The translations under genes were made by a program, and so were the position numbers. The notes beneath the pieces are model-generated. The model worked only from the letters and a program-made list of their open reading frames with translations. It did not search any database and was not told where the DNA came from. This document shows, one piece after another, positions 10,944 to 53,327 of a stretch of DNA of 64,000 nucleotides. The number at the start of each line of letters is the position of its first letter. Within the stretch, counting starts at the first letter, position 1. The DNA comes from Naegleria gruberi (lineage: Eukaryota), in NCBI GenBank assembly GCA_000004985.1, contig GG738860.1. One strand, 5' to 3'.

Positions 10944-11296
10944 TGTGTTCTTGTGATGACATTTTTTAATGAGTTGGAATTATTTTGAAAATAATCACAT
11001 GAGGAATAAATTGCAGAATTGAACATCAATCTCGAGCCAATAAATTCACAAACAATTAAGAACTCTCCAATTAGACTTTAGATAGTTAAGGGATTGTTGA
11101 CGGAAGAGAATTTCATGTTTTATAGTTAGTATTTATAGAAATTAATAACAATAATAATTTGTACTTCACAACAGGAAAGTTGAAGAAACAATAATTTTCA
11201 AGTGGAAACTTTACAATTTCTTTCATCAAGAGGATTATCCAATCAATCAATTATTGAAATAAAAAAAAATTCAAATCACCCAGATCTTCTTTGAAC

Positions 11297-13741: not shown

Positions 13742-13834
13742 TAATTTTTCAACCCAAAAAGAAGCTTCTTATAATAAACTTACCGTAACAATTCTCACGT
13801 TGAATTGGAAAGATTACAAAGTGATAACAATTTA

Positions 13835-16800: not shown

Positions 16801-17467
16801 GATAAGGCTCATGATCTCTTTTGCCAATACCGTCTGTCACAACTTTGAGTTTTTCTCTATCATCTAGGGTTAATAATTTAAATACACCATTACCAGTAAC
16901 ACAAATAGTTTTGCTATCTGGACTAATTGAACATTGAAAGACTGGATCTCCATCCACTGAAGATGTACAAATCGTATCAACTATCCTAGTTTTACCTTCC
17001 ATAGACCACAAAACTAAATTATATTCTGGACCTCCTCCTTGGGCTACCAAATATTTACCATCCAATGAGAAAGCCATACAAACAAATTCATGAGATCCAA
17101 CACCTGGATGAGAAATCGTCTTTTTGACTGTGTATGTTGTTGTTTCATAGAGTTTAATAAGAGGTGGGTTTTTTTTGAGGTCAGTGATCTTTACAGTTGA
17201 TGAAAGTGGTTTTGTTTTTTCTGCAACAGCCAAATATTTTCTATTAGGTGCTAGACAAAGAGCTGATATTCCTTCCGTATTATCGGACCCTGTTTTAATC
17301 TTCCTCACTCCATTTGTTTGATGAAAAACTAGGCATCTACCTGAAGGGTAAACGACACATGTATCGTTGACATTATCTCTAATGTACCAGATATTATTTT
17401 TTACCTTTGCATTAAGACCAAACACATTTTTAAGTGAGAGGATGTGGTTTTGAAATGGTTCAGTCAT
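13835..17467 (-). CDS. CFAP57: cilia/flagella-associated protein 57 (WDR65)-like: N-terminal WD40 propellers + C-terminal coiled coil
   Basis: A 1210-aa uninterrupted ORF. The N-terminus LKNVFGLNAKVKNNIWYIRDN..VVYPSGRCLVFHQ...LCLAPNRKYLAVAE parallels the CFAP57 N-terminus (..FGL...NNV.Y.D....IFPSG......SPNRRYLAISE). About 650 aa of WD-like repeats are followed by about 550 aa of E/K-rich heptad coiled coil. Confidence 0.65.
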   Translation of the reverse strand: MTEPFQNHILSLKNVFGLNAKVKNNIWYIRDNVNDTCVVYPSGRCLVFHQTNGVRKIKTGSDNTEGISALCLAPNRKYLAVAEKTKPLSSTVKITDLKKNPPLIKLYETTTYTVKKTISHPGVGSHEFVCMAFSLDGKYLVAQGGGPEYNLVLWSMEGKTRIVDTICTSSVDGDPVFQCSISPDSKTICVTGNGVFKLLTLDDREKLKVVTDGIGKRDHEPYLSHTWLDEEKLVVSNANGDLFFVEKNEFKFILPSSPSDGLSITALIPYGTGFVCGGENGVVSIFEKSADEKEMYSRSKTLRVMNSTQYKELSETYLDHKILNFNLSPSNENLVLSTSSAQIFTLNISSSDILQKEDDIKFEYLTIPFHSKAITGMDTAIRKPIIATCSTDKTVRVWNYLDNTLNIVKQFPAEAYSIAIHPSGLHLVVGFQDKLRFMDILGDDIREQKSFLVRNCGEVKFSNGGHYFAAAHGNVINVYNTYTLQLISALRGHNGKIRALQWTDDDTRVLSVGMDGAVYEYVVKTEKRTIHHTNKNVGYTSVATDGKSIFVTGSDNKIKGFSEGNPQTEYDLGDNTLVCMEYSEGLKMIFGGLETGAITVHSFPNLEYIEDKLYLHSGPVTRISKAWDDSFLFSSGEDGMLGIVEIRDRDGGKTKKETKYSEEILISGAEWEEKNTTIAELQAKVAELKSDNEYEQKKKEIEFNNALREQAKSFNLELTKKQEEIQSILQEKKSVTDEYEKKIDELIEKHREKIKALEQDFNERLHNSLEQISELNRDREKEKKQILDDSKNKEEMHMRELTDITEEYEDEIKRKDGSIVTLQDEKVELDKKFSEIKNQMEEDQDKEIKILKEMYEKKLLKMNDSYNEAKSEANKWNDRFIALQKTLKQKLELIEKLEEKKQRAENLNKQYQEDIQKMSEENKEREETIIDKEKRIFKLKRQNQELEKFRFVLEYKISTLQEQIKPSKEEITSLRKQSKKMRKELEKAKEKNDRLILSIKDLELKIDGRVKEIQRLNFKVKDNDTLLKRIRADIYKVAQLIQEPKELKEEVTKLYQTYVSEKITTQEMDFDIQKEYERQRSYLEKTVESLKKKLVKATETSKSDNKRIMNENVVLIKEINDLRKEVRSLKQKLKDKELESKIGKKSTDITSSSLELKDLGGITSLEQALKEIEMQRHKIQSLREKIEEYEAEKRALSRPISRERLPPVIV

Positions 17468-18049
17468 TTTTTTTGTAGATTATTAGAGAAAAGTTTTGGC
17501 GGGAGTTCTTTAACGGTTGATGGTTTGAGGTTGAAAGATTGTAAGTTGTATCAGTTTCTGATATCACTAAAAAACAAGAAAGTGTTGAATATTACAATGA
17601 AAGTATTTAAATATACTAAAACTGAATATCAAAGTGAACTCGTTACTAACAAAAGTGGTAATGTAGTACCTCAATAGTGATTACAGTTAACTAAGAATTG
17701 GAAATACGTAAACTTGTTTTGATACTTCATCACATTGTTATTATATATAATATAATAAATAGGGATTGAAGTATCGCTCGTTTATGGAAATGTGAAATGG
17801 CACATTTATGTATTTAAACAATGATGCATTCAATTTAGAACGAGCTGCTTGTCAATGCAAATAGAAACCTGAAGCGTTGGTCACTGAATCATCTTCCTTA
17901 TTTCTTGCCAACTCCGTTTTCAGTCTGTTCTGACGCCACCTTCTAAAAGAGCTTGTTAAAAGCAGCTATTCAGGTAGTCACTATTGCAACTTTCAAGAAC
18001 CTTCACCACAGAACTGTGGGCGAAAAAAAACAATATTTAACGTTAAAAA

Positions 18050-20470
18050 ATGGATGCCCGTGTTGCAGTAACGAAAGGTACGTTAAGAGAGAGATGAATT
18101 TAAGAATATTAAGGCCTCTGTTCATACATCATCAATATAATACCATTTTAATATCGGACTTGAATAAATAGATGATTTTGAGTATGGACAAATATTGGGT
18201 GAAGGTGCTTTTGGCCAAGTTCGTTTGTGTGTCCATAAAGCAACAGAACTTCAATACGCAGCTAAAGTATTGAAGAAGGAAAAACTTATTAAGGCCAAAC
18301 AAACGAAATATGTCAAATCAGAGAAGGAAATATTATTGGAGATGGATCATCCTAACATTTCAAAATTGTGTTATACCTTCACTGATGAAAAGAAGTTGTA
18401 CTTTGTGTTGGAACTTATTTCTGGAGGAGAATTATTTGAGTGTATTATAAAGAGCAATGTAGCAAATGATAATAAGGAATTGAAAAAAGTTGCTCAATTT
18501 TACATGGCTCAAATGTTGGAAGCACTGATCTATATTCACAGTCTTAATATTTGTCACAGAGATCTTAAACCCGAAAATCTAATGCTTACAGGATCTGGTA
18601 ATTTAAAATTGGTGGATTTTGGTATTGCAAAGAAAATTGATAGACCAGGTCCGAATACATTCTGGTAAGTTAAAATATGAAAATCTTGAAAATCTTAATT
18701 TCCAATAGTGGTACTGCTGAATATTTGGCGTAAGTTTTCTTATCAACTTGATTATATTGATGATTTCTCAATAGACCCGAAGTTGTCAGTAATAATGAAT
18801 ATGGTATTATGGTAGATTGGTGGTCTTATGGTTGTATTATTTACGAATTATTTTGTGGAAAGAGTCCTTTTTACAGCTCTAGTATGGCTGTAACTTGTCA
18901 AAAGATTGTTGATAGAGACATCTATTGGCCAAAGACAATGCCACCAGATGCCAAGGATTTAATTAATGGACTTCTCACTACAGACCCAGAAAAGAGAATT
19001 GGAGGTCCTGAATTAAGAAAGCATCCATTTTTCAAAGGAATTGATTGGAAGAATTTAAACAAGGCTGACCCACCTCTGGTTCCAGATCTTTTGTTCAATG
19101 ATGAAGATAGAGGTGTTGGTATTAAAATGTCCATGTTTGAACCTAGAGTGGATCAGGAAGACGTCATGATAAATGCTCACGTTTTCAAATCGAGATCAAG
19201 CAGTAAAGGATCAACGCAAGATGCAATCAAGAGAAGCAACTTGCTCAGAAAAATGTACCCTCAATTGTGTGCTCTCCCAGAGAGACCAAGACCAATCAAT
19301 TCAAGAATTATTCAAAACTCTGAAAATGTTCCAAAATCCAATGATAAGGTAGAAGAGGAGGAGGTAGATGATAGGGGTGATACTCAATCGGAATGTACTA
19401 GTGTCAATGAGGTCAGTAAGAAGGTCGTTATGATTCAAAATGCTGTCGGTTTGAAAACTCCTGTTATCAGGATTGCATTTGGAGAAGGTGACAAGATGGC
19501 TTGTAGTAGTAGTTTCCAAGCAAAAACATTTGGAATTGGAATTGACAGTGAATCTAATGTCATTTTCAATGAATATAAGAATTTATCAACTGTATCCACA
19601 TGTAATTACTTGGAATATTCTCCAAATGGTGAAACACTTGCCTTCGACATGCAAAGACATATTGGTTTGTTGGACTTGAAGAATCCAAAGAAAAAACCAA
19701 GACAATTGGTGGGGCATTCCCTTCCAATTACAAAGGTTTCTTGGCATCCAAAGAGCCACATGTTGGCTGCCGGAGGAAGAGATAACCTGGTGTACTTGTG
19801 GAATGTTGACAGCTCCAAACCAAAGCTTGAGGCTCAAATGGATTCACACAAATCATATATTTCAGATCTTCAATTCCATGCAAAAGATCATCTACTTGCC
19901 AGTGGAAGTGGAGATTTCAAAGTTGTATTCTACGACATTCAAAGTCAGAGAATTGTACAAAAGTACAGTTACCATGAAGATGCAATTCTTGGTGTGAGGT
20001 GGAATCCTAAATTCCCTGACATTTTTGTTTCCTGGTCTTTGGATAGAAGACTAATCTTCTCCGACCGCAGAACTTTCAAACCTATTAAGGTTCTAGCTCA
20101 TAATAGACCTGTGATTCATGCTCAATGGTCACCTGATGGATCAATGCTTGCCACCTGCAGCAAAGATTCCATTAGAATTTGGTCCTATCCATCAATTACC
20201 TCCTCTTTCGTCTACACCAATTCTGAAAGTCTTCCTGGTGAACATCTCTCTTTCGAATGTAATAGCAATTATTTGGCAGTATTGAAATGCAGAGATGATA
20301 CCTCTCCTTCAGTCATTGATACCTCTTCCTTTTCTTTTGTTTCTCCAAATCCACATCCTCAAAACTCACACAAACTCCCAATTACTAGTCTGCAATGGAG
20401 TAATAACAGACCATTCCTTGCCACTGGTTCCTATGATAAGTCTGTTATTTTGTGGGGTGTTGATGAATAA
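18050..20470 (+). CDS. AGC-type Ser/Thr protein kinase fused to C-terminal WD40 repeats; 4 exons (18050-18077, 18172-18664, 18709-18729, 18775-20470)
   Basis: Exon 1 is MDARVAVTK|GTACGT. Exon 2 is DDFEYGQILGEGAFGQV...AAKVLKK...HRDLKPENLM...DFGIAKK...NTFC|GTAAGT (44-nt intron). Exon 3 is a 21-nt micro-exon GTAEYLA|GTAAGT (45-nt intron). Exon 4 is PEVVSNNEYGIMVDWWSYGCIIYEL...HPFFKGIDW, then about 330 aa with WD40-like GH...WD repeats (LAAGGRDNLVYLWNV, LASGSGDFKVVFYDI, LATGSYDKSVILWGV). Confidence 0.8.
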
Positions 20471-20587
20471 ATTTTAAATAATTCAGTGACTTGTTGAATG
20501 GTTTCGGAAGAAGATCCTGTGTATTAAGTTTAGACTTATTTTTTCTAATAATTTACAATGAAATATTTAGTTATTCGAATAGATACC

Positions 20588-21676
20588 TTAGAATACACCA
20601 AATTTATATTGAGGAGGTATTGGAATGTCGTAACCCAATTCCTTCGCAGCTCTGATTGGCCAATATGGATCACCCAAATCCTTTCTTCCAATAAATACTA
20701 AATCAGCTTTTCCTTCTGTCAATATTTGATTGGCTTGTACTGGTTCAGTAATTTTACCAACAGCTGCCACAGGCATTACTTGTCTAACCCTTTCTGCATA
20801 TTTCACTTGATACATTGGAAATGCCATGAGAGCTTGGGATAGTAATCTTGATGAATTACCTCCTGATGAACAGTCAATTATATCAACTCCCAAATCTTTC
20901 AAAATTTCAGCTAACCTCACACTATCCTCAATATCCCAACCATCACTCACATACTCATCACATGATATTCTTACAAATAGAGGCATTGTCTCTGGAATGC
21001 AACTTCTTACTCGACTAACAATTTCAGTTAGAATTCTTATACGATTCTCAAAAGAACCACCAAATTTGTCTTTTCTCTTATTAGATGTTGGTGATAAGAA
21101 GGAATTAATCATATAACCATGAGCTGCATGTATCTCAATCACATCAAAACCAGCCAAGACAGCTCTCTTAGCAGCAGCTACAAAGTCTTCAATCAATTCT
21201 TCCACCTCATCTTCAGTCAACTCTCTCGGAACTCTATGTGATTCATCAAATGCAATTGGAGAAGGTCCAACCACTTCCCATCCTCCTTCTTCATCACTTA
21301 ATGCAGTTCTTCCTAGGGCTTCCCACAATGCACGTGTTGAACCTTTTCTCCCAGAATGAGCCAACTGAATACCAATATGTCCACCTTGTTCATGAGCTAA
21401 ATCCGTAATCTGTTTCAACATTTCCACATGTTCGTCCTTGTAAATTCCCAAACAATGAGGAGTAATTCTTCCAATTTCAGAAACAGCAGATGCCTCCACT
21501 ATAAACAAGCCAGCACCACCTACCACTCTACTGCCAATATGTTGCACATGCCACAGATTAGCAAAACCATCCTTGCTAGAATAGGTACACATTGGAGAAA
21601 CTACAATTCTATTCTTCAAAGTCAATCCTCTAATTGTGTAAGGTTGAAATAACATTGGAGTGTCTGAGGAGGGCAT
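20588..21676 (-). CDS. NADH:flavin oxidoreductase, Old Yellow Enzyme family (YqjM-like)
   Basis: MPSSDTPMLFQPYTIRGLTLKNRIVVSPMCTYSS.DG....WH..H.G.R..GGAGL..VEA.AV...GRI ...HSGRKGS... matches the YqjM-type OYE N-terminus. The ORF track extends to 21853, but the OYE-homologous Met is at 21676. Confidence 0.85.
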   Translation of the reverse strand: MPSSDTPMLFQPYTIRGLTLKNRIVVSPMCTYSSKDGFANLWHVQHIGSRVVGGAGLFIVEASAVSEIGRITPHCLGIYKDEHVEMLKQITDLAHEQGGHIGIQLAHSGRKGSTRALWEALGRTALSDEEGGWEVVGPSPIAFDESHRVPRELTEDEVEELIEDFVAAAKRAVLAGFDVIEIHAAHGYMINSFLSPTSNKRKDKFGGSFENRIRILTEIVSRVRSCIPETMPLFVRISCDEYVSDGWDIEDSVRLAEILKDLGVDIIDCSSGGNSSRLLSQALMAFPMYQVKYAERVRQVMPVAAVGKITEPVQANQILTEGKADLVFIGRKDLGDPYWPIRAAKELGYDIPIPPQYKFGVF

Positions 21677-22015
21677 GATTGCCTTTTTGGCTTCTGCCAA
21701 TCCTGTTAGAGCTTGAATAATAACACCAACCCAGTTGACCATGATGACGAAGATGTGAAGAGAATTTTTTCTAATAGTTTTTTCATGCTTGCTGAATATT
21801 TGTTGGACTTGAACAAAAGTGGTGCGAATTAATGCGAAGAACACCCCGTCCAATGAATCCGATCCTTAAATTGACAATTTTGTGCATTCTTCAAGCTCAA
21901 TATTTCGTATTTTGTGTTTTACAAATCCTCAAGATGCTAAACAAAGATAATAATATTTGCATTCACCTCTACTTAATAATATGGTGTTGTTGCGATCCTT
22001 TTTTAATAGAAAAAA

Positions 22016-23926
22016 ATGTTTAGACAAGCTTGTTCTTCATTGCTCTCATCATCTTTGCCAACAAAAACAACAAGAGCAAATTATTATTACAATAGGAGAT
22101 TGAATAATTCCTCTCTATTGAAATCCATCATTCAATACAATACCTTCTCTACATGTCTCTCACAAAATAATGCCTCGGAGAAGAAAACCAAATCATCAGC
22201 AGCAGCAACAACAACAGGAGGATTAATTACAACACCAATTTATTATGTAAATGGACCACCACATATTGGACATTTATTTACAACTATCCTCTCCGATTCC
22301 ATCTATTTGTACCATAAACAATTGAAGAATCGTCATGATATGATCTTTTCCACTGGTACTGATGAGCATGGTAGTAAAGTGCAAAGAACAGCCATTAAAA
22401 ATCTTCCCAATCAAAATACTTTGGATGATGAAACTATTAACAAGTCGTGTGTTGAATTTTGTGAGAAAATTTCTGAAACATTCAAGACCATGATGAAGGA
22501 TTTTAATATTCAATATACTCACTATTTAAGAACAAGTGCCACAAGGGAACATAGAGAAACAGTGGAAAGAGTTTGGAAGGAATTGGAAAAACGAGGAGAT
22601 ATTTATTTGGGAGAATATCAGGGATGGTATTGTACTACTGATGAAGCTTTCACAACAGATATTGAACAAGTTAAAATTACCAATGAAAAGGGAGAGGAAG
22701 AATTAGTGACATTGAGTAAAGCTTCAGGAAATAGATGTGAATTCGTGACTGAAAAGAATTATAAATTCAGATTGAGCAAATATATGGATAGAATTCAACA
22801 ATGGTTGGAAGAAAATCCAAATACAGTCAAACCAAAGGAAAGATACAATGAATTGATGGAATTAATTAAGAAGGAGAAGGAAAGAAGTCCAGAATCTCTC
22901 GATTTAAGTATTTCTAGAACAAGAGATCGTGTACAGTGGGGTATTCCAGTTCCAGATGATTCGGAACATACAATTTATGTTTGGCTTGATGCTTTGACAA
23001 ATTATCTTACTGCTGGTTCCACTCTCGCTAATGAATCACTCAATTGGCCACCAACTGTCCAAATTATTGGAAAAGACATTCTCAAATTCCATGGTATTTA
23101 CTGGCCTGCTTTTTTGATGGCTCTTGGAAAGGAACTTCCTGAAACCATTCTTGTTCACTCATATTGGCTTGTCAATGATGTAAAAATGTCCAAGTCTTTA
23201 GGCAATGTTGTATCACCATATGATTTGTTGAATCAAACTGGTGTTGAACATGACTTGTTACGTTACTATTTATTGAGTGAAGCTGTACTCAGTAATGATA
23301 GTAGTTTCAGTATGGTTAGATTCCCTGTTAAGGTGAATGAATTGGCTGATATTTTCGGAAATTTATTGACCAGAGCTTTTAATAAGAAATTCCATGCTGA
23401 AGAGGGAGAAATTCAATACAGAAATCTTCAATTTGATTGCCCTAATGCCGAACAAAATCCAAATCAAACTGCTCAAGAACTTATTGAATTACTCAATGAT
23501 TTACAAGAACAAGTTAGAAATGCCTATGAAGAAAGATGTGAAGTGAGATTTGCCAATCTTGCAGCCACAAAGATTTTAAAGAAGTGTAATCAATTATTTG
23601 ATGAAGTTAAACCATGGATTCTTGTTAAGGATGCAGTGGCTAATGCTCAACAAATTGAGGAGTTAATGTTTCTTGTTGCTGAAACTTTGAGAAACTGTTC
23701 TATTGCCCTTTACCCAGTTTTACCTCACAAGATGAATCAATCATTGAGCTTTTTCAATCAGTCCACACCATTGTTGGAAGATATTGGTTTCTGTAAGAAG
23801 GGTACTTCTATTCGCGTCAAATCCAATCCAGAAATCCTTTTCAAAAAGATAGAGGAAGTAAAACAACAAGAACATTCATCAAGAGGAAGAGGAAAGAACA
23901 AGGAAAAGAATGCTGAAAAGAAATAA
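22016..23926 (+). CDS. methionyl-tRNA synthetase, mitochondrial type
   Basis: Class-I aaRS HIGH motif (PPHIGHLFTT) and KMSKS motif (KMSKSLGNVV) are present, plus the MetRS-type anticodon-binding helical C-terminus. The N-terminal MFRQACSSLLSSSLPTKTTRANYYYNRRL looks like a mitochondrial presequence. Confidence 0.85.
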   Translation: MFRQACSSLLSSSLPTKTTRANYYYNRRLNNSSLLKSIIQYNTFSTCLSQNNASEKKTKSSAAATTTGGLITTPIYYVNGPPHIGHLFTTILSDSIYLYHKQLKNRHDMIFSTGTDEHGSKVQRTAIKNLPNQNTLDDETINKSCVEFCEKISETFKTMMKDFNIQYTHYLRTSATREHRETVERVWKELEKRGDIYLGEYQGWYCTTDEAFTTDIEQVKITNEKGEEELVTLSKASGNRCEFVTEKNYKFRLSKYMDRIQQWLEENPNTVKPKERYNELMELIKKEKERSPESLDLSISRTRDRVQWGIPVPDDSEHTIYVWLDALTNYLTAGSTLANESLNWPPTVQIIGKDILKFHGIYWPAFLMALGKELPETILVHSYWLVNDVKMSKSLGNVVSPYDLLNQTGVEHDLLRYYLLSEAVLSNDSSFSMVRFPVKVNELADIFGNLLTRAFNKKFHAEEGEIQYRNLQFDCPNAEQNPNQTAQELIELLNDLQEQVRNAYEERCEVRFANLAATKILKKCNQLFDEVKPWILVKDAVANAQQIEELMFLVAETLRNCSIALYPVLPHKMNQSLSFFNQSTPLLEDIGFCKKGTSIRVKSNPEILFKKIEEVKQQEHSSRGRGKNKEKNAEKK

Positions 23927-28699: not shown

Positions 28700-31399
28700 T
28701 TACAAGATAACACAACCACCTCCTCCACCTCCACTGCTACTGGGTCTTGGGATGTTATTAATTTGAGTTCGGAGGTCTTGATTTTGTCTGGTTAGTTCAT
28801 CGAATTTTCTTTGAAATAATTCCTCCTGATTAGAATATTTGGAATGTATTTGAGCAACTTGGGAAGAGTATTCTTTCTTAATTTCTGTTTCTTTTTTGTC
28901 CCATTCCAATTTGAAATGGTTGAGGTCTTGTTCATGAGCTTGTTGCTGCTCTATTAAGGTATGTAAATGTTTTTCATTTTGCAGTTTCATATCTTCTAGT
29001 TCTTGTAAACGAGTAAGTTGTTCTGATTCGAGTTTGGTAATTTCAAGCCTTTGTTGTTCTTGTTCTAACATTTGTATTACCTTTTCGGATTCGTAATCCT
29101 GTAATTTGGATAAATAGTTAGCACATTCGACAGTTAAATTCTCAATATCTTGCAAAAGGTAAGTTCTAACTTGCTCTCTACCTGGACCTTTGCATTGAGC
29201 TTCGAATTGTTTCATTTGTCTTTCAGCCTCTTTCTCTAAATCTTGAACTGTGGCATCGTGGGTTAAAGCTCTAATAAAGAGTGATATATTTTGTTTCATT
29301 TCGGATCGTACTTGCTCGCACAACCTAACAGATTTGTCCATATTGTTACTTTCTATTTGGGATCTCTCTTTTTTAATTAATTCAAACAACTTGTCAGAAT
29401 ATTCTCTCAATATCTTTTCATCTTTTTCAAACATGGAGTCTCTGTTGAATATGTCAAGAATTGTTGCCCATGTTTTTGTGTGTTGTTTACGGATTTCACA
29501 AATTTCATAAATACTGTTACTGTTCAAATGTTTCTTCATTTCCCTTTCGTATAAATTTACACATTTTTCAATTGTCTTATTGTAGGTATTTTCAATTACC
29601 ATTGTAAATTTGTCCTCAATATTAGGAATCATTCCATGTGTTTTAATGGTTTTCAAATATAATAATATTAAAGTAACATAGCGAGTTCCATCTAATAAAC
29701 CTCCATTCATATTTTGTTTTGGTTTAATATTGGATGGAACGAAACTGTTAACAAAAGTAGACATTTCCTTAATGAAGTTAGCATTCAGTAAATGTTCTAC
29801 GTATGGAATATCAGGAACACAACCTGTAGCAGGTGCTTCCATATGATATGTATCAAAAGTTTCAAAAGATTCAATTACTTTTTTTCTTGAATCATTGTTG
29901 CAAACCTTATTCAAAATAAAGGAGGTAAGAGTCTTAAATTCAGCTGGTATATTCAATTTGAAATCTCTGAACAACCAAATACATCTTGGTTTCATATAAC
30001 TATTGCACTCCGTATTGTTTTGATTGGATGATTTCAATTGAATGTTTTGAGTGAATCTGGTGGTAATTTCAAGTGTCTCCATACTACTTGCTGTAGGACA
30101 AGTTGTGGTATTATAAATAAACAGAGATGATAGTAATACACTTAGAATCATAATGTGATTATCATCAGAAGCGTTAGCAGATGCTGCATCAACACCTTCA
30201 GTGTCTATCAATAAAACTTTCAATTTCTGATTGCCGTAGACCATTTCAATTGGCTCTGACCATATCCAAATTCCAAATGTTTTAGCTTCTACTGTGTGTC
30301 CTAAATGAAAGCTATCTGCAGGAACATTATCACCAACTAATCTACTAAGAGAGTATGATTTACCTTCCCTTGTTCTTCCAGCAAGTACAATTGCTCCAAT
30401 AGGCTCCTTGATATTTTTGATTATGTCAAGAGCTTGTTTCTGGAAGATTAAACCCTCTCTACGTCCGTTCTCTGATAACAGAATGTATTGACCATTGGGA
30501 GTGACCACCATATTTTTAGGAAGTAAGAGAGGAATTGCTTTACCGTGGAGTTTAACAACTTGAAAAGCAGGGTTTTGGGATGAGTTGTCTCCAGCAAATA
30601 CTAAAAGACCCCAATCGCCAAAATAATCCACGTTAACAACAATATTGTTTTCCATACAGAGGTAAATACTTTGATTTGTTGTAATATTTTCTCCAACATG
30701 ACATTGTCCATAAATGGTAAAGGTAGCATAATTTTTTTGATAATAGCCATTCTCAACTTCAAATCTATTAACATTTGGTGAAAGTACTAACTTTCTATGG
30801 ACTCTTGAAGAATAGATAAATACTGTATCTCCAGATTTAACAATACCATCTTTTGATTGATCATTAGCATTTACAAAATACAGTAGATCGTTTTCAGCAG
30901 AAAAGTGAGGGAGAGCTACTAATACATTTTGCTCCTTCAATCCCACATATAGATTGGTATTTGAGTTCATGATGGCTACTGGCTCTTTGTAAAATAAATT
31001 AGTATCTTTACACTTTTCAACAAATGGATCAAATATGCTATCTGAAACTAAATCAGGGTCTGCTTCCATTTCTTTAAGAATATCCTTTGAAGAGTTTGGT
31101 ACTTTGGAATCATTATCTATGGGTTGATCAAAGTCCATGTCAAGATAACTGAATGATTCGGCCAAATCTTCGAGACTATCATTAATAGCTTTTCTTTCTG
31201 AAGTATGAATGAAAGTGTAATATTCAATGGCGTCTTCAAGATGACCCATGCTATTTTGGATGGCTTCAAACACTAAATTCAAATCCGACAAATCCATTTC
31301 TATCATTCTCCAGAATGTTGAGGTGGCTAAATCGCAAGCTTCTTTTCCATACTCCTCAAAGTGTTTCTCGATTTTATCCAATACTGTGTGGTGATCCAT
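28700..31399 (-). CDS. guanylate-binding-protein (GBP)-like large GTPase, paralog 1: ~330-aa N-terminal extension + GBP GTPase domain + coiled coil + Gly run + CaaX (CVIL)
   Basis: AIVLAGRTREGKSYSLSRL (P-loop), EAKTFGIWIW (GBP TKGIW signature), LLIDTEGVD (G3), then ...HIMILSVLLSSLFIYNT. The C-terminus is ...RPSSSGGGGGGCVIL*, which is prenylatable. Confidence 0.8.
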   Translation of the reverse strand: MDHHTVLDKIEKHFEEYGKEACDLATSTFWRMIEMDLSDLNLVFEAIQNSMGHLEDAIEYYTFIHTSERKAINDSLEDLAESFSYLDMDFDQPIDNDSKVPNSSKDILKEMEADPDLVSDSIFDPFVEKCKDTNLFYKEPVAIMNSNTNLYVGLKEQNVLVALPHFSAENDLLYFVNANDQSKDGIVKSGDTVFIYSSRVHRKLVLSPNVNRFEVENGYYQKNYATFTIYGQCHVGENITTNQSIYLCMENNIVVNVDYFGDWGLLVFAGDNSSQNPAFQVVKLHGKAIPLLLPKNMVVTPNGQYILLSENGRREGLIFQKQALDIIKNIKEPIGAIVLAGRTREGKSYSLSRLVGDNVPADSFHLGHTVEAKTFGIWIWSEPIEMVYGNQKLKVLLIDTEGVDAASANASDDNHIMILSVLLSSLFIYNTTTCPTASSMETLEITTRFTQNIQLKSSNQNNTECNSYMKPRCIWLFRDFKLNIPAEFKTLTSFILNKVCNNDSRKKVIESFETFDTYHMEAPATGCVPDIPYVEHLLNANFIKEMSTFVNSFVPSNIKPKQNMNGGLLDGTRYVTLILLYLKTIKTHGMIPNIEDKFTMVIENTYNKTIEKCVNLYEREMKKHLNSNSIYEICEIRKQHTKTWATILDIFNRDSMFEKDEKILREYSDKLFELIKKERSQIESNNMDKSVRLCEQVRSEMKQNISLFIRALTHDATVQDLEKEAERQMKQFEAQCKGPGREQVRTYLLQDIENLTVECANYLSKLQDYESEKVIQMLEQEQQRLEITKLESEQLTRLQELEDMKLQNEKHLHTLIEQQQAHEQDLNHFKLEWDKKETEIKKEYSSQVAQIHSKYSNQEELFQRKFDELTRQNQDLRTQINNIPRPSSSGGGGGGCVIL

Positions 31400-31482
31400 C
31401 TAAATAGTTTTTTGTTGTTGGGTTGAAAAATTCTAAATTGTTTTCTCTTTTAAATTGCAAGCACCATCCGTTTTAATCAACA

Positions 31483-31559
31483 AAACGTGATTGTAGACTC
31501 AAATAAGTAACACTCATCACGTTTTACTAAACGAACAATACAACAGGGCGATCACGTTT
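31483..31559. promoter_or_regulatory. recurrent AAACGTGAT / ATCACGTTT motif cluster in the 5' region of GBP paralog 1
   Basis: AAACGTGAT sits at 31483-31491. Its reverse complement ATCACGTTT sits at 31516-31524 and again at 31551-31559 (GCGATCACGTTTC). The same 9-mer pair recurs as a palindrome upstream of the other two GBP genes. Confidence 0.35.
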
Positions 31560-31625
31560 CAGCATTTTTTAATATTTTTATTATTTTCAATTTTAAATTA
31601 AATGTGTTTAAATAATTATATTTAT

Positions 31626-34154
31626 TTACAAAATATTACAAAAACCAGATGATCTATTATTCATATTTGCAAGACTACTGGTTAGATTAGAAATTTGTCT
31701 TGAACTATCAGCAGATTGTTGTTGTAAAACATTAATCATTTGAGTCATTCTTTGTTCGGATTGAGCTTGCTGTTGAGTAAACATTTGATTCATATTTTGG
31801 AGATTTTCCTTATGTTCAAAGAGGAGTCTTTCTTGGAGTTCTTGCATTTTCTTCTTTTCATCATTTGATGCAGCAAGCATTTCTTTTTGGAATTCTTTGA
31901 TTTTGTCCATTGTTTCCTTGTATAATTCTTCTTTGGCTTTTTCAGATTGTTCGAGGTTTTCTAATTGCTGTCTGACTTTTGCAGTTTCTTGTTGGATGGC
32001 TTGATTTTTCAGTCGTTGTTGAATCAAATCTTCCTTGTAGCTCTTAACTTTCTTCAACTTGTTTTTATCTAATTCACTTCTTTCTTCAAAGAAGGTTTTA
32101 AGTACTTCAGTCTTGGCTGGTCCTTTTGCTCTCTGATCGTATAATTTACCAATCTGATCAAAGACAAGCTCAATATCTTCCATTGACTTGTTCTCAATAT
32201 CATTTTCAAGAGATTCAACTGCTTGTTTGTGAAGAGAGGAGATTATCTCATGACATTGCTTTCTAGATACTTCACGATTCTTCAAAAAGAAAGAGTGAAT
32301 TAAACCTCCAGTGATATTGCCAGACTTATCTGTGGTCATGAATGAATTTGCCAATTTTTCAAACTCCTTCTTGATAACATCTTCATCGGTAAAGACAACA
32401 TTTTGGGAAAATCTTTTTCCCAATGTTGCAATAATGTTTCCATGAATTTCCAATAGTTCAGTATGCTCAATAGGCAAAGGGCATTCAACGATCTTTTCAT
32501 TCATCATGGTAGTGTACAATTCAGGGAGTAGTTGCTCTTCCTTTCTGAGTGATGTTTCAGAAATGAGAGAAATTGGATCAGAGAATGAAGGAACCATTCC
32601 AGGAGTATTCAACTTGAAAATATAATTGAACAATACTACTGGCAAATGATCTATTGTCATTTGAGCCTTTGATCCATGTTTGTTGTGGAAATATTTTGGT
32701 GGTGCATTTTGAACAATTTCATAAACGACCTGTTCCACCTTTTGCAAGAACTCTGGGTTCAGATAATGCCAATAATCTGCAATGGAGGTAAGAATTTGGG
32801 TACTGACATGTGGAGGTGGAATAGTATCATATCTCCTGTTTTGGAAATACATGACGATATCCCTAACAATATTATCCAATTGGTCATCTCCACGTTTAAG
32901 AATTTCTCTTTCCATGTAGCTGTCAAGAGTCTGGCCATATGGAAGTTGTAAAAACACGTCCCTCATTATCCAGTGGAAAAATGGTGAATAGGAGCCTTTC
33001 TCCAAACTAAGGGTTTCAGCAATTTTGGATACAAATGACAAATGGTGCAAGTCAGATCTTTTTGGTGAGCTTTGTGAGTTGTAAACAAAGTAAGATGAAA
33101 TCAAAACTGAAAGAATTAAGAGCAAGTAATCATTATCATTTGAAGCGTCAGTTGAGTTCATGCCTTCACAGTCCAAAACGAGCAACAAAGTCTCTTTTCC
33201 TTCAACAAGAGAGCAAGACATCCAGATTCCTTTGGTTTTAGCAATCACTTCATTACCCAATTCAAATGCAGTAAAAGTTCTGTCATTAATCAATCGACAT
33301 GACAAGAGACTTTTACCTAATCTCATAGGTCCTGATACAGTTACGATACCAATAGGAATTTTGCCAAAATTCTTGACCATTGTTCTTATAGCCTGAACTG
33401 ATTCTCTGACGAGATACAATCTATCAGGAGCTCTACAATTGGAATCAACGAGACCAGTTTGAGGATTGACATATCCTTCACTTCCATTCAATTTCACCAT
33501 TTGACTTGTTTGTGGATCAAAGTAGTGATCTGTAAATTGAACAAGAGGAATACTTTTCATGCCCTCTAGGGGAAAACTTTCGCCTTCATCAAAAAACTCC
33601 TCGTCCTTAACATATTCAGGGATTGATTCAATACTAATTGGTCTAGTATCACCTCTCGTAGTGGCTCTTTTAGTTACTGTTTGAGGAAATGATCTTGGAA
33701 TACTTGGTGAAGGTCGTATATGGGCTCTCCTTTCAAATTGGTCAGAGTGCTGAGAATTGTTACCAACAAAACCTGGAGAAAATTGATACATTGGCTGTGG
33801 ATTATTTTGAAATGGATTCACATTGAAGTATTGGTAAGGAGGAAGATGATTACCAAATGAAACAGGAGTGCTAGCTCCATCAAATGTTGATTCTGGTAAA
33901 TAAGCTTGTCCAGTAACTTCATGTTGTTGAGGATTTCCAAACGCCATGGGATAGAATCCATTGTTTACATTATTGTTCATTTGTGGTTGAGGAATAATAT
34001 AACGTGGAAATGGCATTTGAGAATTGTAATAGGACGGAACACCAACCGAGAAATCACTCATTTGAGAGTTTGGAGTGGTCGTTCTTGGACAATAGTTTGA
34101 ATCTCCCTTATTGCTTTGCATTGTTTTTTTTGTTTTACTTGCAGAAATGATCAT
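31626..34154 (-). CDS. GBP-like large GTPase, paralog 2: Q/N/P-rich prion-like N-terminus + GBP GTPase domain + helical/coiled-coil domain + CaaX (CNIL)
   Basis: IGIVTVSGPMRLGKSLLSCRL (canonical G..R.GKS P-loop), AKTKGIWM, LVLDCEGM, ILSVLISSYFVYNS. The C-terminus is ...NNRSSGFCNIL* (CaaL box; human GBP2 ends CNIL). The first ATG in frame is at 34154 (the ORF track starts at a TTG at 34163). Confidence 0.8.
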   Translation of the reverse strand: MIISASKTKKTMQSNKGDSNYCPRTTTPNSQMSDFSVGVPSYYNSQMPFPRYIIPQPQMNNNVNNGFYPMAFGNPQQHEVTGQAYLPESTFDGASTPVSFGNHLPPYQYFNVNPFQNNPQPMYQFSPGFVGNNSQHSDQFERRAHIRPSPSIPRSFPQTVTKRATTRGDTRPISIESIPEYVKDEEFFDEGESFPLEGMKSIPLVQFTDHYFDPQTSQMVKLNGSEGYVNPQTGLVDSNCRAPDRLYLVRESVQAIRTMVKNFGKIPIGIVTVSGPMRLGKSLLSCRLINDRTFTAFELGNEVIAKTKGIWMSCSLVEGKETLLLVLDCEGMNSTDASNDNDYLLLILSVLISSYFVYNSQSSPKRSDLHHLSFVSKIAETLSLEKGSYSPFFHWIMRDVFLQLPYGQTLDSYMEREILKRGDDQLDNIVRDIVMYFQNRRYDTIPPPHVSTQILTSIADYWHYLNPEFLQKVEQVVYEIVQNAPPKYFHNKHGSKAQMTIDHLPVVLFNYIFKLNTPGMVPSFSDPISLISETSLRKEEQLLPELYTTMMNEKIVECPLPIEHTELLEIHGNIIATLGKRFSQNVVFTDEDVIKKEFEKLANSFMTTDKSGNITGGLIHSFFLKNREVSRKQCHEIISSLHKQAVESLENDIENKSMEDIELVFDQIGKLYDQRAKGPAKTEVLKTFFEERSELDKNKLKKVKSYKEDLIQQRLKNQAIQQETAKVRQQLENLEQSEKAKEELYKETMDKIKEFQKEMLAASNDEKKKMQELQERLLFEHKENLQNMNQMFTQQQAQSEQRMTQMINVLQQQSADSSRQISNLTSSLANMNNRSSGFCNIL

Positions 34155-34228
34155 ATCAGACAAAACGTGTGAGTGTATTATGCTTCATCTCATTACACGT
34201 TTCGATTTCAGGTTTGTAATAATAGAGT

Positions 34229-34248
34229 AAACGTGATCCATCACGTTT
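34229..34248. promoter_or_regulatory. perfect palindrome AAACGTGAT-CC-ATCACGTTT in the 170-bp divergent promoter between GBP paralogs 2 and 3
   Basis: aaacgtgatccatcacgttt: 9-nt arms, 2-nt spacer. Two further half-site variants sit at 34163-34170 (AAACGTGT) and 34195-34202 (ACACGTTT) in the same intergenic region. Confidence 0.4.
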
Positions 34249-34323
34249 GGTATTAAAGTGGTTTCAATTTTAAAGTAATTAAAGCCAGCTCTAGCTTTAC
34301 TATAATGCAATAATTAAAAAACA

Positions 34324-36759
34324 ATGCAATCTGCTAAACCTCTCATATTATTCAAAAGCTCTGTTAATGGAGAATTAAATTCATCTGATTGTGGTGAACC
34401 TTTTCTGGTTCAAGAAACAGTCAATGAATTACTACAATTGACCGATTTACTCAACAAACCAGTCAAGGTAATTGGAGTATGTGGTCCAAAGAGGGCTGCT
34501 AAAACTTCTCTTGCCAATTATCTTGCTCAATCTGTATCATTTGAAGTTGGACATTCAATTGAGTCCAAAACAAAGGGTATTTGGTTGTTTGTAGTTGATA
34601 AACAAGATCATTCCTTAATCATTTTGGATTCTGAGGGTTTTGATGAAGCCTCAACTGCCCAAGATCAACTCTTGTTCATTATCCTGTACTTTTTGTGTTC
34701 CCTCCTTGTTTTCAATACCAGTCATGTGCCAACAAGACAAAATGTTCAAGATTTACAATTTCTAGCCGAATTTAAATCCAAGCTACTTGTATCTGAAGCT
34801 TCAACCCATAACAAATCTGTTCATCCAACCTTCTTGAATTCATTTGGTCCAAACTTTTTATGGTTGATTAGGGATAAATTCTTGAATATTCCCAACGAAT
34901 TTCAAGACATGGAAGATTTCATGTTGAGAGTAGTCCTGGCAAAATCAAATGATGGAAAGGATCATTTGAGAGAAAACATTCTCACCATCTTCAATAGAGT
35001 CTTCTTTGATTTTTTACCTGTACCTGGAGAGCCATCATTCCAGTCAAAATTGGAACATGTTACAATGAATGTTATTTTGGCTAATGTTCCATTAAAAAAA
35101 TTGGTCAATCCTGAAGATATTGGCGATAGAGAAAGTGTTACTTTGGAAACATTCCTTAAATTGGTTGAACTTGTTATTCATCAAATGACTCGAACTCTTA
35201 ACAAGATTCCAGTAATTGACAATATTTTTCATACCATCACCTCCAATAAGGAAATTTACAATTTAAAACGTGCCGTTCAAGTATACGTTGATCACATGAG
35301 CAGGGAACTTGATGATATTGACCCAGTTGACTATGACATATTCACTGAAATAGATAAGCAAGCTGTTGCTAAGGCAACCAAAACCTATTTTGAAGGAATT
35401 CCATCTTCAACTGCAGATTCGAATAGATTACTTTCTGATCTCATGCAAAAGAAGAAGAGTTTCATTGACGACCAAAATGAAAAATCCAAAACATATTGTA
35501 CCTCTCTCATCAAACAATTGTACTCGAAAATGGTTGCTCCCCAAGTAAAACAGTTAATGAATGTCAGAGGTGATATTTCCATGTTGCTTGACACTATTGA
35601 TAAATTCAAGAAGGAATACCATTCGAAAGCTAAAGGAAACATGGCAGTCTCTGTTTTGAATGGCTATTATAATCATCATATTACTAAGGATTTGAATAAT
35701 TTGAGTTCAATAAGAGAGTATGAAGAGAATGTGAAGAATATTAAGGAAGAATTTTCTCACAACTTGGTTCAGTTGAAGGAAGCTGAAAAATCTCTTGTCA
35801 CATTTGAGAACAATATTTCTCAAAATACAAACTATCAACAAATGCTAGAAATGCAAACAAAACTGCAATCTGAACTCTTTAAAGAAGTGATGATTGCTCA
35901 GAGGGAATCACAAGCTAATACTCTAGTCTCCATTGATATGCTCTCAAAGAGTATGCATGACTCTCAGAGACAAGCTCTTAGCATGTATTCTGCAATGCAA
36001 CAATCTCAGCAACAAGCACAAACTCAACAATTAGCTCTCGTTCTAGAGCATAATAGAATTGCAAGTGAGCAACTTAATCAAGCAATGGAAAAAACTACTC
36101 AAGCAGTAATTCAGTATAATGCCAATAGAGAAGATGATTCTTTTTTGGGAAAGGTTGGAAAGATTGGTTTAATAGTTGGTTTAGGTGCTTTGGCACCTGC
36201 ATTGGGTGCCATTCCACATGTTGGATCTGTCCTCTCTGCAACAGCTACAGGAATGAGTGCAGTTATGGGAAAGCAATTGCTCGGACAAGAATATGACCCA
36301 AGACTAATTCAAACCAATACTACTCCTACTCCTCCAAAGGTTAGTCATAGTCCATCAGTCAATCGAGACTCCTTATTATCTCAATTCACAACCAATGCTC
36401 TCTCACAACAAGTGCATCCACAAAATCAACAAGTAACCAACAGCCATCAACCAAGAGCTGTTGTTAGCCAGCTGCCAAGAAAGAATCCTATTGTGCAACC
36501 TCAAAAATCTTCAATCACAGAGTCCACAAAATATGAATTGGGTGGAGAGTTTAAACAAGTTGGCCTCAATGGATCTTATTCCAATACTGTTACAAAAGAT
36601 ATGTTTCCTTATGGCTGTCAATGGGGATGTGGACGTGAAAATGTTTGTTCAAAGCCAGGCCATTCATGTGGAAGACCATCATGCAATGAGGAAAGAAATA
36701 AGAAATCCTATTTCAAAGGCACACTTGGTGTAATGTCAACAACAAGAAACAAGTTGTGA
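34324..36759 (+). CDS. GBP-like large GTPase, paralog 3 (divergent: degenerate P-loop, Gly-rich hydrophobic segment, Cys-rich C-terminus, no CaaX)
   Basis: VKVIGVCGPKRAAKTSLANYL (P-loop with AKT in place of GKS), ESKTKGIWLF, LIILDSEGFD, LFIILYFLCSLLVFNTS. Downstream is a helical domain, then GKVGKIGLIVGLGALAPALGAIPHVGSVLSATATGMSAVMG (glycine-zipper/TM-like) and a Cys-rich tail YGCQWGCGRENVCSKPGHSCGRPSCNEE. Confidence 0.7.
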   Translation: MQSAKPLILFKSSVNGELNSSDCGEPFLVQETVNELLQLTDLLNKPVKVIGVCGPKRAAKTSLANYLAQSVSFEVGHSIESKTKGIWLFVVDKQDHSLIILDSEGFDEASTAQDQLLFIILYFLCSLLVFNTSHVPTRQNVQDLQFLAEFKSKLLVSEASTHNKSVHPTFLNSFGPNFLWLIRDKFLNIPNEFQDMEDFMLRVVLAKSNDGKDHLRENILTIFNRVFFDFLPVPGEPSFQSKLEHVTMNVILANVPLKKLVNPEDIGDRESVTLETFLKLVELVIHQMTRTLNKIPVIDNIFHTITSNKEIYNLKRAVQVYVDHMSRELDDIDPVDYDIFTEIDKQAVAKATKTYFEGIPSSTADSNRLLSDLMQKKKSFIDDQNEKSKTYCTSLIKQLYSKMVAPQVKQLMNVRGDISMLLDTIDKFKKEYHSKAKGNMAVSVLNGYYNHHITKDLNNLSSIREYEENVKNIKEEFSHNLVQLKEAEKSLVTFENNISQNTNYQQMLEMQTKLQSELFKEVMIAQRESQANTLVSIDMLSKSMHDSQRQALSMYSAMQQSQQQAQTQQLALVLEHNRIASEQLNQAMEKTTQAVIQYNANREDDSFLGKVGKIGLIVGLGALAPALGAIPHVGSVLSATATGMSAVMGKQLLGQEYDPRLIQTNTTPTPPKVSHSPSVNRDSLLSQFTTNALSQQVHPQNQQVTNSHQPRAVVSQLPRKNPIVQPQKSSITESTKYELGGEFKQVGLNGSYSNTVTKDMFPYGCQWGCGRENVCSKPGHSCGRPSCNEERNKKSYFKGTLGVMSTTRNKL

Positions 36760-38006: not shown

Positions 38007-38620
38007 GGTAATAATGGAATCTTTTTTCTAATGTGGTGCCAAGATAGCAACAAGTACTTGGTGTGTCAAATAGAGATGAAGATTTAATGCTGACAATTCA
38101 GAGAATAAGCGAGCAGTTGATTTGTTTTTTTTAAATGATATTTATGTCCAATTTGGTTTTCATGGGGGTTGTTGGTGATGTTGTGAGATGTTGGTGGTGG
38201 CATCTTTGCTTCTAGCTATGAAATTTAAAGATGGATGTTGAATCGAGAGAACACTTGAGAAAATGGTATTGATTCGGTTAACGGTCGACATTATCTCTAT
38301 TACAGTGTGGTGTTATGAGTTTTCAACTCTTGGCGCCAATATTTTAAAATGCATGTTCGATTCAGCAATACTTAGTTTCCTGAATTAGAATATCTCTATT
38401 TTTCTTCATCAATTCGCGACACTACAGTGACTAACAATGAAGTTAAATCTCTTCAAACAGTAGTTCTAGACCGCCAAATGATTTCCAAACCTTATTATTA
38501 CTTGTTTAAAAAAGAAGATTTGAATTGCTCAATAAATATTCGAAACTCCAATTCACTGAATGCTTCAATCCAATGAAGCACCTTACCTATTAATCTCTTC
38601 CTTAATAAAGTCCTGATTCT

Positions 38621-43678: not shown

Positions 43679-44245
43679 ACTAATTATATTGTGTTCATAT
43701 TCTTGCTGATGGGAAGAAGAAGTGTCTCCAGTCAGATTAATCTTATTCGGATATATTTTGCTGCTGTTGATTTATACAAATCCTACTCGATGACTTTCTT
43801 GATTCAAGATAATAATCATCACGGCCATCACGTGGTTGATTATCATGCATTTTTATTATTGGTTTGTAAACATCATCTCCATCCTTGTCTTGCGTAATCT
43901 TTGTTTATTCCGATTGCAATAAAAACATCAGCTGAAAGAACAATGTTATTTTCCTAAAGTCCATCCTTTCTCTCTTCTTCTATAAGAGTCAGTAAATCAA
44001 AAAATTGTTAGAACCATGTAGGACACGACACTCTTTTCAAACAGAATCAGGTGCATTGAAAGCTCTAGTTAGCTACTATCACACCTCTGGCTCTAAGTAC
44101 CTCTCCCGTATGAATGAAAGAAGTAATTAGTGTTGAGGGTTACGTTGCTTTGAAAGCCTATCATCTGCAGGCAATCAATTTAAGCGTTAGAGTGAGGGAA
44201 AAGGCGCCAACTTTTTGGTTTTTTAAAAATAATCATTAAAAAAAT

Positions 44246-51813: not shown

Positions 51814-52003
51814 TTTTTTTTGTATTTGGATGAAATTTAGGCGCCAAATTTTGGTACGAAAATGTAAAGAGTTTGGCGCCAAGGATTTCCTGAATCAATA
51901 ACAATGAAAATGGAAAATTATTTTCATCATTCAAGTGTTCTGAATGAATTTGTTGTTTTTTCCACTTTCACAAGTTTGAAAATGTAATGATTACAACAAT
52001 ATT

Positions 52004-52744
52004 TTACATGCATAATGTAAAATACAATAATACTAGTAAGGTGATCAAAGTTGTAGTACCTCCTGATAGACTTGAATGTAGTGTCATTGAATTGCCTGTA
52101 CACATGACAGAATCTGCCATATCAAAACTCTTCCAAGAACCTTGATAAACTCTATTAATTCCATTACTTGTTGATAGACATCTAAAATCTATCAACTCTC
52201 TCGAGTTACAACTTGCATAATAATTCTCACACGAGGACATGCAGAGATTGTAAATTTGTGTTGACTCGTCCCTACTCACATCACATAGTGGAAAGAAGTG
52301 TTGACAAATGTAACGTCTTGCTGCATTGTAGCACTGACTTTTTTGAAATAATCCCTTGTGATAGACTTCCGAGTTGAATGATAATAATGCCTGTCTATCA
52401 CTCAATTTTAAATAATCAACAATTGTCAAGTTGTAAGAGTCAAAGGTTGATGAAGAATTGGTGAGTGTTAAATTATTAGATATGCAAATTCGTATCGATT
52501 CGTTGAGTGTCATGTACTCGTTGATAGTTTCCAAGCAGAAAGTTTCGTTTGCATTCGTTTGCGAAATAAAATCATAGAGAAGAGGAGAAGATAGAGAGGT
52601 ACATTCACCCGAACAAGATCCATAGAAATTGTTATTGTTTAATGTTTCCGATTCGTTCATAAGTGTGAACACCAAGAGAATGACAAGAAAGAATGAAGGA
52701 TTTTTCATGTTGTTGGAATTTTTTTTGATTTGTGAATTGGCCAA
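52004..52744 (-). CDS. secreted/GPI-anchored-type Cys-rich protein (signal peptide, many N-glyc sequons, C-terminal hydrophobic tail); possible Frizzled-like CRD
   Basis: The N-terminus MKNPSFFLVILLVFTLMNES is a signal-peptide candidate. There are 14 Cys with spacing ...CQHFFPLC...LCMSSCENYYASC...C..., multiple N.T/N.S sequons, and a C-terminal GGTTTLITLLVLLYFTLCM* (GPI-signal-like). Confidence 0.5.
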   Translation of the reverse strand: MANSQIKKNSNNMKNPSFFLVILLVFTLMNESETLNNNNFYGSCSGECTSLSSPLLYDFISQTNANETFCLETINEYMTLNESIRICISNNLTLTNSSSTFDSYNLTIVDYLKLSDRQALLSFNSEVYHKGLFQKSQCYNAARRYICQHFFPLCDVSRDESTQIYNLCMSSCENYYASCNSRELIDFRCLSTSNGINRVYQGSWKSFDMADSVMCTGNSMTLHSSLSGGTTTLITLLVLLYFTLCM

Positions 52745-52812
52745 TAATTATAATCACCTCAATTTTTGTCTCGAAACGAGGATGTGCTTGCAATTTAAAT
52801 TTTAAAAAAAAA

Positions 52813-53327
52813 ATGATGTCAGCAACAGGAAATCATCATGAACAACAAAATAATGAACAACAGCAGTCGGAAAGAGCCAACCGTAAAAAGATTTTAGATG
52901 CTGTCTTGGAGTATTATTCAGAGGCTTTTTCTATAGAAAAAAGTAACGAGCAAATTAAAAACAAAATGGACCTTTGTTTACCGAAACATGTCTGTAAGCG
53001 TATTTCATTTAAATTATTGAAAACAGGAGCAAATATAAATTCCATTAGTGAGAAAGTTTTGAAAATTCCAAAAAAAGAAAAGAAAATTGAAAATCATGAA
53101 GAAGTGCTTCTTTCCCAAGCAGACTTGGATGATTTTAATAAGGAACCAACACAACATGACACTGAGGAGAAAAAAAAACAAATAATGGAGTATACTGAGC
53201 AGTATGTTCAGAAAAAGTCACAGAGTGTGCTTTCACAGATGGATAGTATTACTTTTCCCAAAAAGATTAGAGCAAGACTTGATCAAATTTCTAATATTAT
53301 TGCTAAAACCTGTATTCATCTAGAAGA
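52813..53327 (+). CDS. 5' part of a hypothetical gene running into the 1484-N gap
   Basis: ATG at 52813: MMSATGNHHEQQNNEQQQSERANRKKILDAVLEYYSEAF... is open to the gap edge. No family recognised. Confidence 0.4.

Follow-up and report, generated by a model that had tools for sequence, protein, structure and literature searches.

The GBP cluster and the sites in its promoter regions

The stretch of DNA analysed here (the window: 64,000 nucleotides of contig GG738860.1 of Naegleria gruberi) contains three genes of the GBP family, GBP-1, GBP-2 and GBP-3, and a short motif, AAACGTGAT, recurs in the DNA upstream of them. The window is N. gruberi because the product of GBP-1 is 100% identical to NAEGRDRAFT_65980 of that species, and because of the similarity of its methionyl-tRNA synthetase (MetRS), which is 74% identical to that of N. 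fowleri and 70% identical to that of N. lovaniensis. It has about 33% GC and is densely filled with long, intron-free open reading frames (ORFs) of eukaryotic type, e.g. MMS19, COG7 and MetRS. The cluster is made up as follows.

28700–31399, minus strand: GBP-1, 899 aa (NAEGRDRAFT_65980), with the Pfam GBP and GBP_C domains and a C-terminal CaaX box, CVIL
31400–31625, minus strand: GBP-1 upstream region, 226 bp, which is at the same time the 3′ flank of GBP-2
31626–34121, minus strand: GBP-2, 831 aa, with Pfam GBP (7e-22), GBP_C below the cut-off and the CaaX box CNIL
34122–34323, no strand assigned: divergent promoter of GBP-2 and GBP-3, with 202 bp from one start codon to the other
34324–36759, plus strand: GBP-3, 811 aa, with Pfam GBP and GBP_C, no CaaX box and the P-loop GPKRAAKT

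A first-pass annotation had named the three genes as GBPs, and this naming is borne out by the GTPase domain PF02263, which is present in all three proteins (E values from 1e-19 to 1e-31). GBP_C (PF02841) scores above the cut-off in GBP-1 and GBP-3 and just under it in GBP-2 (21.6 versus 24.3 bits). In the alignment the D-x-E-G and RD motifs are invariant across the three proteins, and their pairwise identity is just 23–27%.

Exact copies of AAACGTGAT are found five times in the 64 kb, at 31483 (+), 31516 (−), 31551 (−), 34229 (+) and 34240 (−); these are the positions given in the first-pass annotation, and there are no others in the window. The two half-site variants that it described, AAACGTGTG and AAACGTGTA, were also recovered, and the complete set consists of seven sites.

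Site 1: 31483–31491, plus strand, AAACGTGAT, 84–92 bp upstream of the GBP-1 ATG
Site 2: 31516–31524, minus strand, AAACGTGAT, paired with site 1 in a perfect inverted repeat of 10 nt around a 24-nt spacer
Site 3: 31551–31559, minus strand, AAACGTGAT, 35 bp from site 2 and 67 bp past the GBP-2 stop codon
Site 4: 34163–34171, plus strand, variant AAACGTGTG, 42–50 bp upstream of the GBP-2 ATG
Site 5: 34194–34202, minus strand, variant AAACGTGTA, forming an 8-nt perfect inverted repeat with site 4 around a 24-nt spacer
Site 6: 34229–34237, plus strand, AAACGTGAT, left arm of a 20-bp head-to-head pair
Site 7: 34240–34248, minus strand, AAACGTGAT, right arm of the head-to-head pair, 76–84 bp upstream of the GBP-3 ATG

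Sites 6 and 7, described earlier as a perfect palindrome, do form a perfect 20-bp inverted repeat, AAACGTGAT-CC-ATCACGTTT (that is, AAACGTGATCCATCACGTTT). The divergent promoter that holds them was earlier given a length of 170 bp, which needs correction: the spacer measures 202 bp from ATG to ATG, and the start codon of GBP-2 begins at 34121. The distances of the sites upstream of each start codon (bp, with the A of the ATG as reference) are as follows.

GBP-1: −84/−92, −117/−125 and −152/−160
GBP-2: −42/−50, −73/−81, −108/−116 and −119/−127
GBP-3: −76/−84, −87/−95, −122/−130 and −153/−161

Since AAACGTGTG and AAACGTGTA differ from AAACGTGAT outside AAACGTG, this heptamer is the invariant core. 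The hexamer AACGTG is present in 7/7 sites, the overall form is AAACGTG(AT/TR), and the sites occur in either orientation within both promoter regions. Neighbouring ACGT cores are separated, centre to centre, by 34 and 35 bp upstream of GBP-1 and by 32, 34 and 12 bp in the divergent spacer; the typical spacing of about 32–35 bp corresponds to about three helical turns and places the sites on the same face of the DNA, with one tight pair at 12 bp. The site alignment shows flanking bases that are mutually unrelated, and repeat analysis of the promoters confines the similarity between sites to 8–10 nt, which rules out a piece of a longer repeat, a miniature inverted-repeat transposable element (MITE) or a converted promoter segment. 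Considering that the paralogues are so dissimilar in sequence and that the site flanks are unrelated, AAACGTG stands as a motif in its own right; promoter duplication or a repeat does not account for it.

Restriction of the motif to the GBP upstream regions

The background for the motif consisted of the 64-kb window and about 178 kb of other loci, of which 44 kb come from N. fowleri and N. lovaniensis. Dinucleotide shuffles give an expectation of 0.42 copies of AAACGTGAT in the window, where five are present, a number not attained in any of 100 shuffles; in the other loci there is a single copy, located in a coding region. The core AAACGTG has ten matches in the window, seven of them in the 428 bp of GBP upstream DNA and three in ORFs (at 19178, 32891 and 35266). 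There are no copies in the remaining ~10.7 kb outside long ORFs and none in about 20 other intergenic regions of the window, in agreement with the earlier remark that the motif had not been seen there, and a general core-promoter or terminator signal is thereby ruled out. The excess of AAACGTG in the 428 bp has a Poisson P of ~1e-12, or ~1e-8 when corrected for all 7-mers, and when the two promoters were screened for k-mers without bias, the AAACGTG-type motif ranked at the top at k = 7–9. As an empirical control, all intergenic DNA was tiled and 990 tile pairs were scored for a common rare 7-mer. The GBP pair came first, with seven copies, and the runner-up, with five, was the E2F-like GGCGCCA; the latter serves as a positive control, since it indicates that the screen picks up genuine factor motifs. 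Versions of AAACGTGAT with one mismatch are not enriched (16 found versus 20 expected).

Two of the ORF copies of AAACGTG are located inside GBP genes, at 32891–32897 on the minus strand in GBP-2 and at 35266–35272 on the plus strand in GBP-3 (rough P = 0.05, marginal). These could be chance occurrences or intragenic sites.

Other features of the window are a second enriched word and several assembly gaps. The E2F-type word TGGCGCCA/GGCGCCA occurs eight times versus 0.5 expected and is concentrated in three other intergenic regions, with sites as listed.

38331–38338: E2F-type site
44203–44209: E2F-type site
51840–51846: E2F-type site
51874–51881: E2F-type site

Runs of N (assembly gaps) are present at 1395–1444, 10453–10943 and 53328–54811. 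The apparent GC content of 11–22% at 52–56 kb and the ORFs 10408–10969, 52732–55584 and 53316–54824 were discarded as artefacts of such runs.

A different word in the orthologous cluster of a relative

Two orthologues of GBP-1 came up in a profile search: that of Willaertia magna and another on metagenome contigs. The metagenome contigs, L004 (ENA) and L005 (JGI 3300002220), are identical in sequence and carry three GBP genes, which reciprocal BLAST pairs as Rel_A with GBP-1, Rel_C with GBP-2 and Rel_B with GBP-3. The divergent GBP-2/GBP-3 arrangement is kept in this relative; GBP-1 is placed differently, and none of the flanking genes is the same.

AAACGTG was not found in the promoters of the relative's GBP cluster. 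Instead, its two GBP promoters contain another word, TTGTGATAAA, in five exact copies and one copy with a single mismatch. Two direct copies are located 58–81 bp upstream of Rel_A, and in the divergent spacer (251 bp) there are a head-to-head pair with 5 bp between the arms, a further exact copy 35–44 bp upstream of Rel_C (the GBP-2-proximal site of N. gruberi lies 42–50 bp upstream) and the one-mismatch copy. There is no exact TTGTGATAAA elsewhere in the relative's 10-kb contig, and none of 200 shuffles matched the count; nor was the word found in a second contig of that sample, over 10.9 kb, and the full 64-kb N. gruberi window has one copy. When a second motif common to N. gruberi and the relative was sought, nothing emerged beyond ATCAC and A-rich 6-mers.

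What is kept across the two species is the layout: multiple copies, restriction to the promoters, both orientations, a head-to-head pair in the divergent spacer and a site some 40 bp from the GBP-2 start. Because a motif in several copies, specific to the cluster, sits at the corresponding places of the relative's orthologous promoters, shared cis-regulation of the trio appears to have been maintained. We read this as evidence that a common cis-control of the three genes has been selected, while the motif, and hence presumably the factor or its specificity, has turned over.

How closely the relative is allied to Naegleria can be judged from other genes of its JGI sample. This sample contains a MetRS that is 70% identical to that of N. 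gruberi, beside a gene for a WD40 protein of 1210 aa that is 84% identical to, and syntenic with, its counterpart in the window. The GC contents of the MetRS contig and the GBP contig are 0.38 and 0.39, and if both come from one organism, the relative is Naegleria-like. The GBP orthologues of N. gruberi and the relative (L004 417–8201 against window 28700–36759) are 26–37% identical, whereas four other genes of the sample (L009), three with counterparts in the window at 13.8–23.9 kb and one at 7812–8936 (overall span 7812–23893), are 66–84% identical. This comparison points to GBPs having diverged far faster than housekeeping genes, provided that both contigs represent one organism.

In Willaertia magna (L003) the two GBP upstream regions contain ATTCGAA/TTATTCGAA, at 3185–3192, 3280–3286 and 9932–9938. 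Three of the four distinct loci of this word in 22.8 kb lie in GBP upstream regions, and its enrichment is not significant across the whole locus; it may be a third lineage-specific word of GBP promoters, but the case is weak. The loci anchored by MetRS in N. fowleri (L001) and N. lovaniensis (L002) contain no GBP genes, and downstream of MetRS they are not syntenic with N. gruberi. The profile search likewise recovered no GBP homologue from either species, so that GBPs may have been lost in their lineage. A metagenome scan yielded three distant, intron-containing GBP loci (WLWD01, L006–L008) with neither motif and no clear repeated word, and two Logan contigs (L010 and L011) were uninformative for orthologous GBP clusters.

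The termini of the proteins deserve a separate remark. GBP-1 ends in CVIL (encoded at 28700–28714) and GBP-2 in CNIL (31626–31640), both CaaX prenylation boxes, and the orthologues Rel_A and Rel_C (L004) and that of Willaertia (L003 10001–12802) end in CTIQ, CIIL and CILM. Neither GBP-3 nor its orthologue has a CaaX box, and the P-loop of GBP-3 is GPKRAAKT in place of GxxxxGKS. Taken together, these sequence features suggest a membrane-anchored pair of GBPs with one divergent partner. At the other end, a 14-nt sequence, AAAAAACAATGCAA, is identical at 34116–34129 and 34316–34329, where it spans the start codons of GBP-2 and GBP-3, and both proteins start with MQS. Rel_B carries a similar start-context sequence, ACAAAATGCAA, and AAAAAACAATGCAA is probably a common A-rich start context.

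Proposed co-regulation, its alternatives and known elements

What, then, do the seven sites do? They are likely to be cluster-specific binding sites through which one sequence-specific factor co-regulates the three GBP genes. In the proposed mechanism the seven AAACGTG(AT/TR) elements would be bound by a single factor, probably as a dimer or higher oligomer; the four sites of the 202-bp spacer would serve GBP-2 and GBP-3 bidirectionally and the three upstream sites would serve GBP-1, and both the same-face spacing of about 32–35 bp and the 12-bp head-to-head pair would fit co-operative occupancy. The first-pass annotation had proposed a dimeric-factor site that co-regulates the cluster. The analysis supplies for that proposal a discrete, orientation-free motif specific to GBP 5′ regions and a head-to-head pair, and the pairing and orientation independence are as expected for a dimeric-factor site; protein binding, co-regulation and the class of the factor are what we infer from them.

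Several points weigh against this interpretation. The sequence of the motif is not kept in the relative, where AAACGTGAT and TTGTGATAAA have just GTGAT/ATCAC in common, and the GBP promoters of Willaertia magna contain neither AAACGTGAT/AAACGTG nor TTGTGATAAA; classical phylogenetic footprinting therefore fails. As L004 equals L005 in sequence, the two contigs amount to one independent comparison, and cluster specificity within N. gruberi rests on 64 kb of its genome. No transcription-factor gene is located in the window or beside the relative's cluster. A literature search found no expression, binding or chromatin data for these GBP genes, and no paper on Naegleria GBPs, NAEGRDRAFT_65980 or Naegleria promoter motifs.

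Among the alternatives, the one that survives best, though it is improbable, takes the sites as passive remnants of an ancestral promoter, copied together with the GBP genes, or as the product of homogenisation by gene conversion, with no present function. That the three genes are paralogues in one cluster, and that the 14-nt identity spans two of their start codons, agrees with such an origin. However, the paralogues have diverged to 23–27% identity and the trio is older than the split from the relative, and neutral 9-mers would not stay intact five times while all flanks diverged. Conversion tracts should also bring flanking similarity, and none is seen. Copy number and orientation differ between the promoters. 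Finally, the relative has a replacement word at every promoter, but its sites are still multi-copy and confined to promoters, which implies selection.

About as improbable is an element that acts at the level of DNA and not as a classical activator site, such as a boundary or insulator, a nucleosome-positioning signal or a CpG target for cytosine methylation/TET in N. gruberi. Every site contains a CpG in a spacer that is otherwise poor in CpG (25–30% GC), and the regular spacing of ~33 bp could mean a structural array; but the equivalent motif of the relative has no CpG, and general chromatin elements would be expected in other intergenic regions, where none is present. Restriction to the promoters of one family and head-to-head pairing are, moreover, typical of regulon-specific factor sites.

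Still less credit can be given to the ends of a mobile element or a dispersed repeat, for instance a MITE-like AAACGTGAT-N24-ATCACGTTT, inserted near the GBP genes by chance. Two units are indeed inverted repeats of 8–10 nt around a 24-nt spacer, but these spacers are unrelated in sequence and show neither target-site duplications nor extended terminal similarity; no further copies exist in the window, the 178 kb of other loci contain the one coding match, and in the relative a different word is confined to the promoters in the same way. Coincidence, whether by chance or through the composition of an AT-rich genome, could be suspected for a short motif first spotted post hoc; it is effectively refuted by the shuffles, of which 0/100 reach five copies, the corrected P of ~1e-8, the top rank among 990 tile pairs and the independent parallel in the relative (0/200 shuffles).

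With co-regulation by one factor as the preferred explanation, the result matters for several reasons. Vertebrate GBPs are central interferon-induced effectors of cell-autonomous immunity, and the promoter element could offer an entry point to the control and role of GBPs in free-living protists. The 20-bp head-to-head site could be used as bait for the regulator, and a motif scan could define its regulon; together, regulator and regulon would allow the response of GBPs to bacteria, chlamydiae and giant viruses to be tested. Replacement of a motif while the promoter architecture is kept would also be a clean, small case of regulatory rewiring in a little-studied eukaryotic supergroup. A bolder proposal, which in its entirety we hold to be rather unlikely, is that the trio represents an ancient, physically kept regulon of Naegleria-type amoebae with a dedicated regulator, in which AAACGTGAT and TTGTGATAAA were exchanged in concert at three promoters, the GBPs diverge fast (26–37% versus 66–84% identity) and the pair of transcription factor and site co-evolves with a prenylated, possibly defence-related GTPase module. 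If this is true, the motif would give the first cis-regulatory access to inducible cell-autonomous defence beyond animals. More soberly, the motif is probably a new cis-element of an ordinary, familiar kind, with nothing mechanistically unprecedented about it.

As to the factor, ACGT cores are typical of basic leucine zipper (bZIP) and basic helix-loop-helix (bHLH) dimers; the G-box is CACGTG, and the CACGTT variant of yeast Pho4 is a comparable ACGT-core site. The exact hexamer AACGTG/CACGTT of all seven GBP sites is that of the T/G-box, a documented site of bHLH proteins of the MYC2 type, known from plants (PMC6021540). The GBP sites further resemble T/G-box and G-box elements in being present in multiple copies, in either orientation and within ~160 bp of the start codon, and five of them read ATCACGTT, one base from ATCACGTG, a word that two further promoters of the window contain. 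A protein of the bHLH or bZIP class is therefore a reasonable guess, although a tentative one that we would not favour outright, because it depends on resemblance to these known boxes. There are differences too: the conserved flanks of the GBP sites (AAA 5′ and AT 3′) reach past the hexamer, neither GBP promoter contains a canonical palindromic CANNTG/CACGTG, and the orthologous promoters of the relative use TTGTGATAAA, in which the ACGT core is lacking, a fact that weakens the assignment. The bZIP/bHLH-like ACGTG core that had been pointed out earlier thus holds for 7/7 N. gruberi sites and is not kept in the relative. Canonical CACGTG boxes also occur elsewhere in the window, four of the seven being intergenic (2195, 9703, 43829 and 62870) and two having the form ATCACGTG; these intergenic boxes may be a separate bHLH-type motif akin to the GBP word.

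The asymmetric ACGTG is likewise identical to the core of the hypoxia response element. Hypoxia and xenobiotic response elements (RCGTG core, bHLH-PAS heterodimers) differ from the GBP sites in their flanks, and nothing ties the GBP genes to hypoxia; bHLH-PAS factors are regarded as a metazoan family. The interferon-stimulated response element (ISRE) and gamma-activated site (GAS) of vertebrate GBP promoters are similar in another respect, as short multi-copy elements at clustered GBP paralogues that provide a route to coordinated expression. Human GBP1, GBP2 and GBP5 also carry CaaX boxes, as do Naegleria GBP-1 and GBP-2. The GAS pattern TTCN3-4GAA is absent from the two GBP promoters. Their sole ISRE-like match (GAAANNGAAA pattern), GAAATCGAAA at 34200–34209 on the minus strand, abuts site 5, and with 26 occurrences of that pattern in the window it is at chance level; over the ISRE, GAS, heat-shock element, cAMP response element and GATA patterns as a whole, matches in the two promoters are absent or at chance level. 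No IRF or STAT factors are known from Heterolobosea. The analogy with ISRE/GAS elements drawn in the first-pass annotation, which itself called the sequences unrelated, can thus be retained as a functional analogy at most.

A parallel in architecture is the GAL7-GAL10-GAL1 cluster of yeast, with its Gal4 upstream activating sequences. The Naegleria genes differ in being paralogues and not steps of a pathway, the motif is another one and presumably the factor family as well, and the Naegleria rewiring is inferred from just two species. The likeness lies in a divergent pair with a tandem neighbour and about four dimer sites in the spacer, with fewer at the third gene. It extends to evolution: regulation of the GAL cluster was reportedly rewired in Candida (Martchenko et al. 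2007), and there, as would be the case for the GBP trio, the species keep the gene cluster but exchange the cis-motif and, with it, the regulator.

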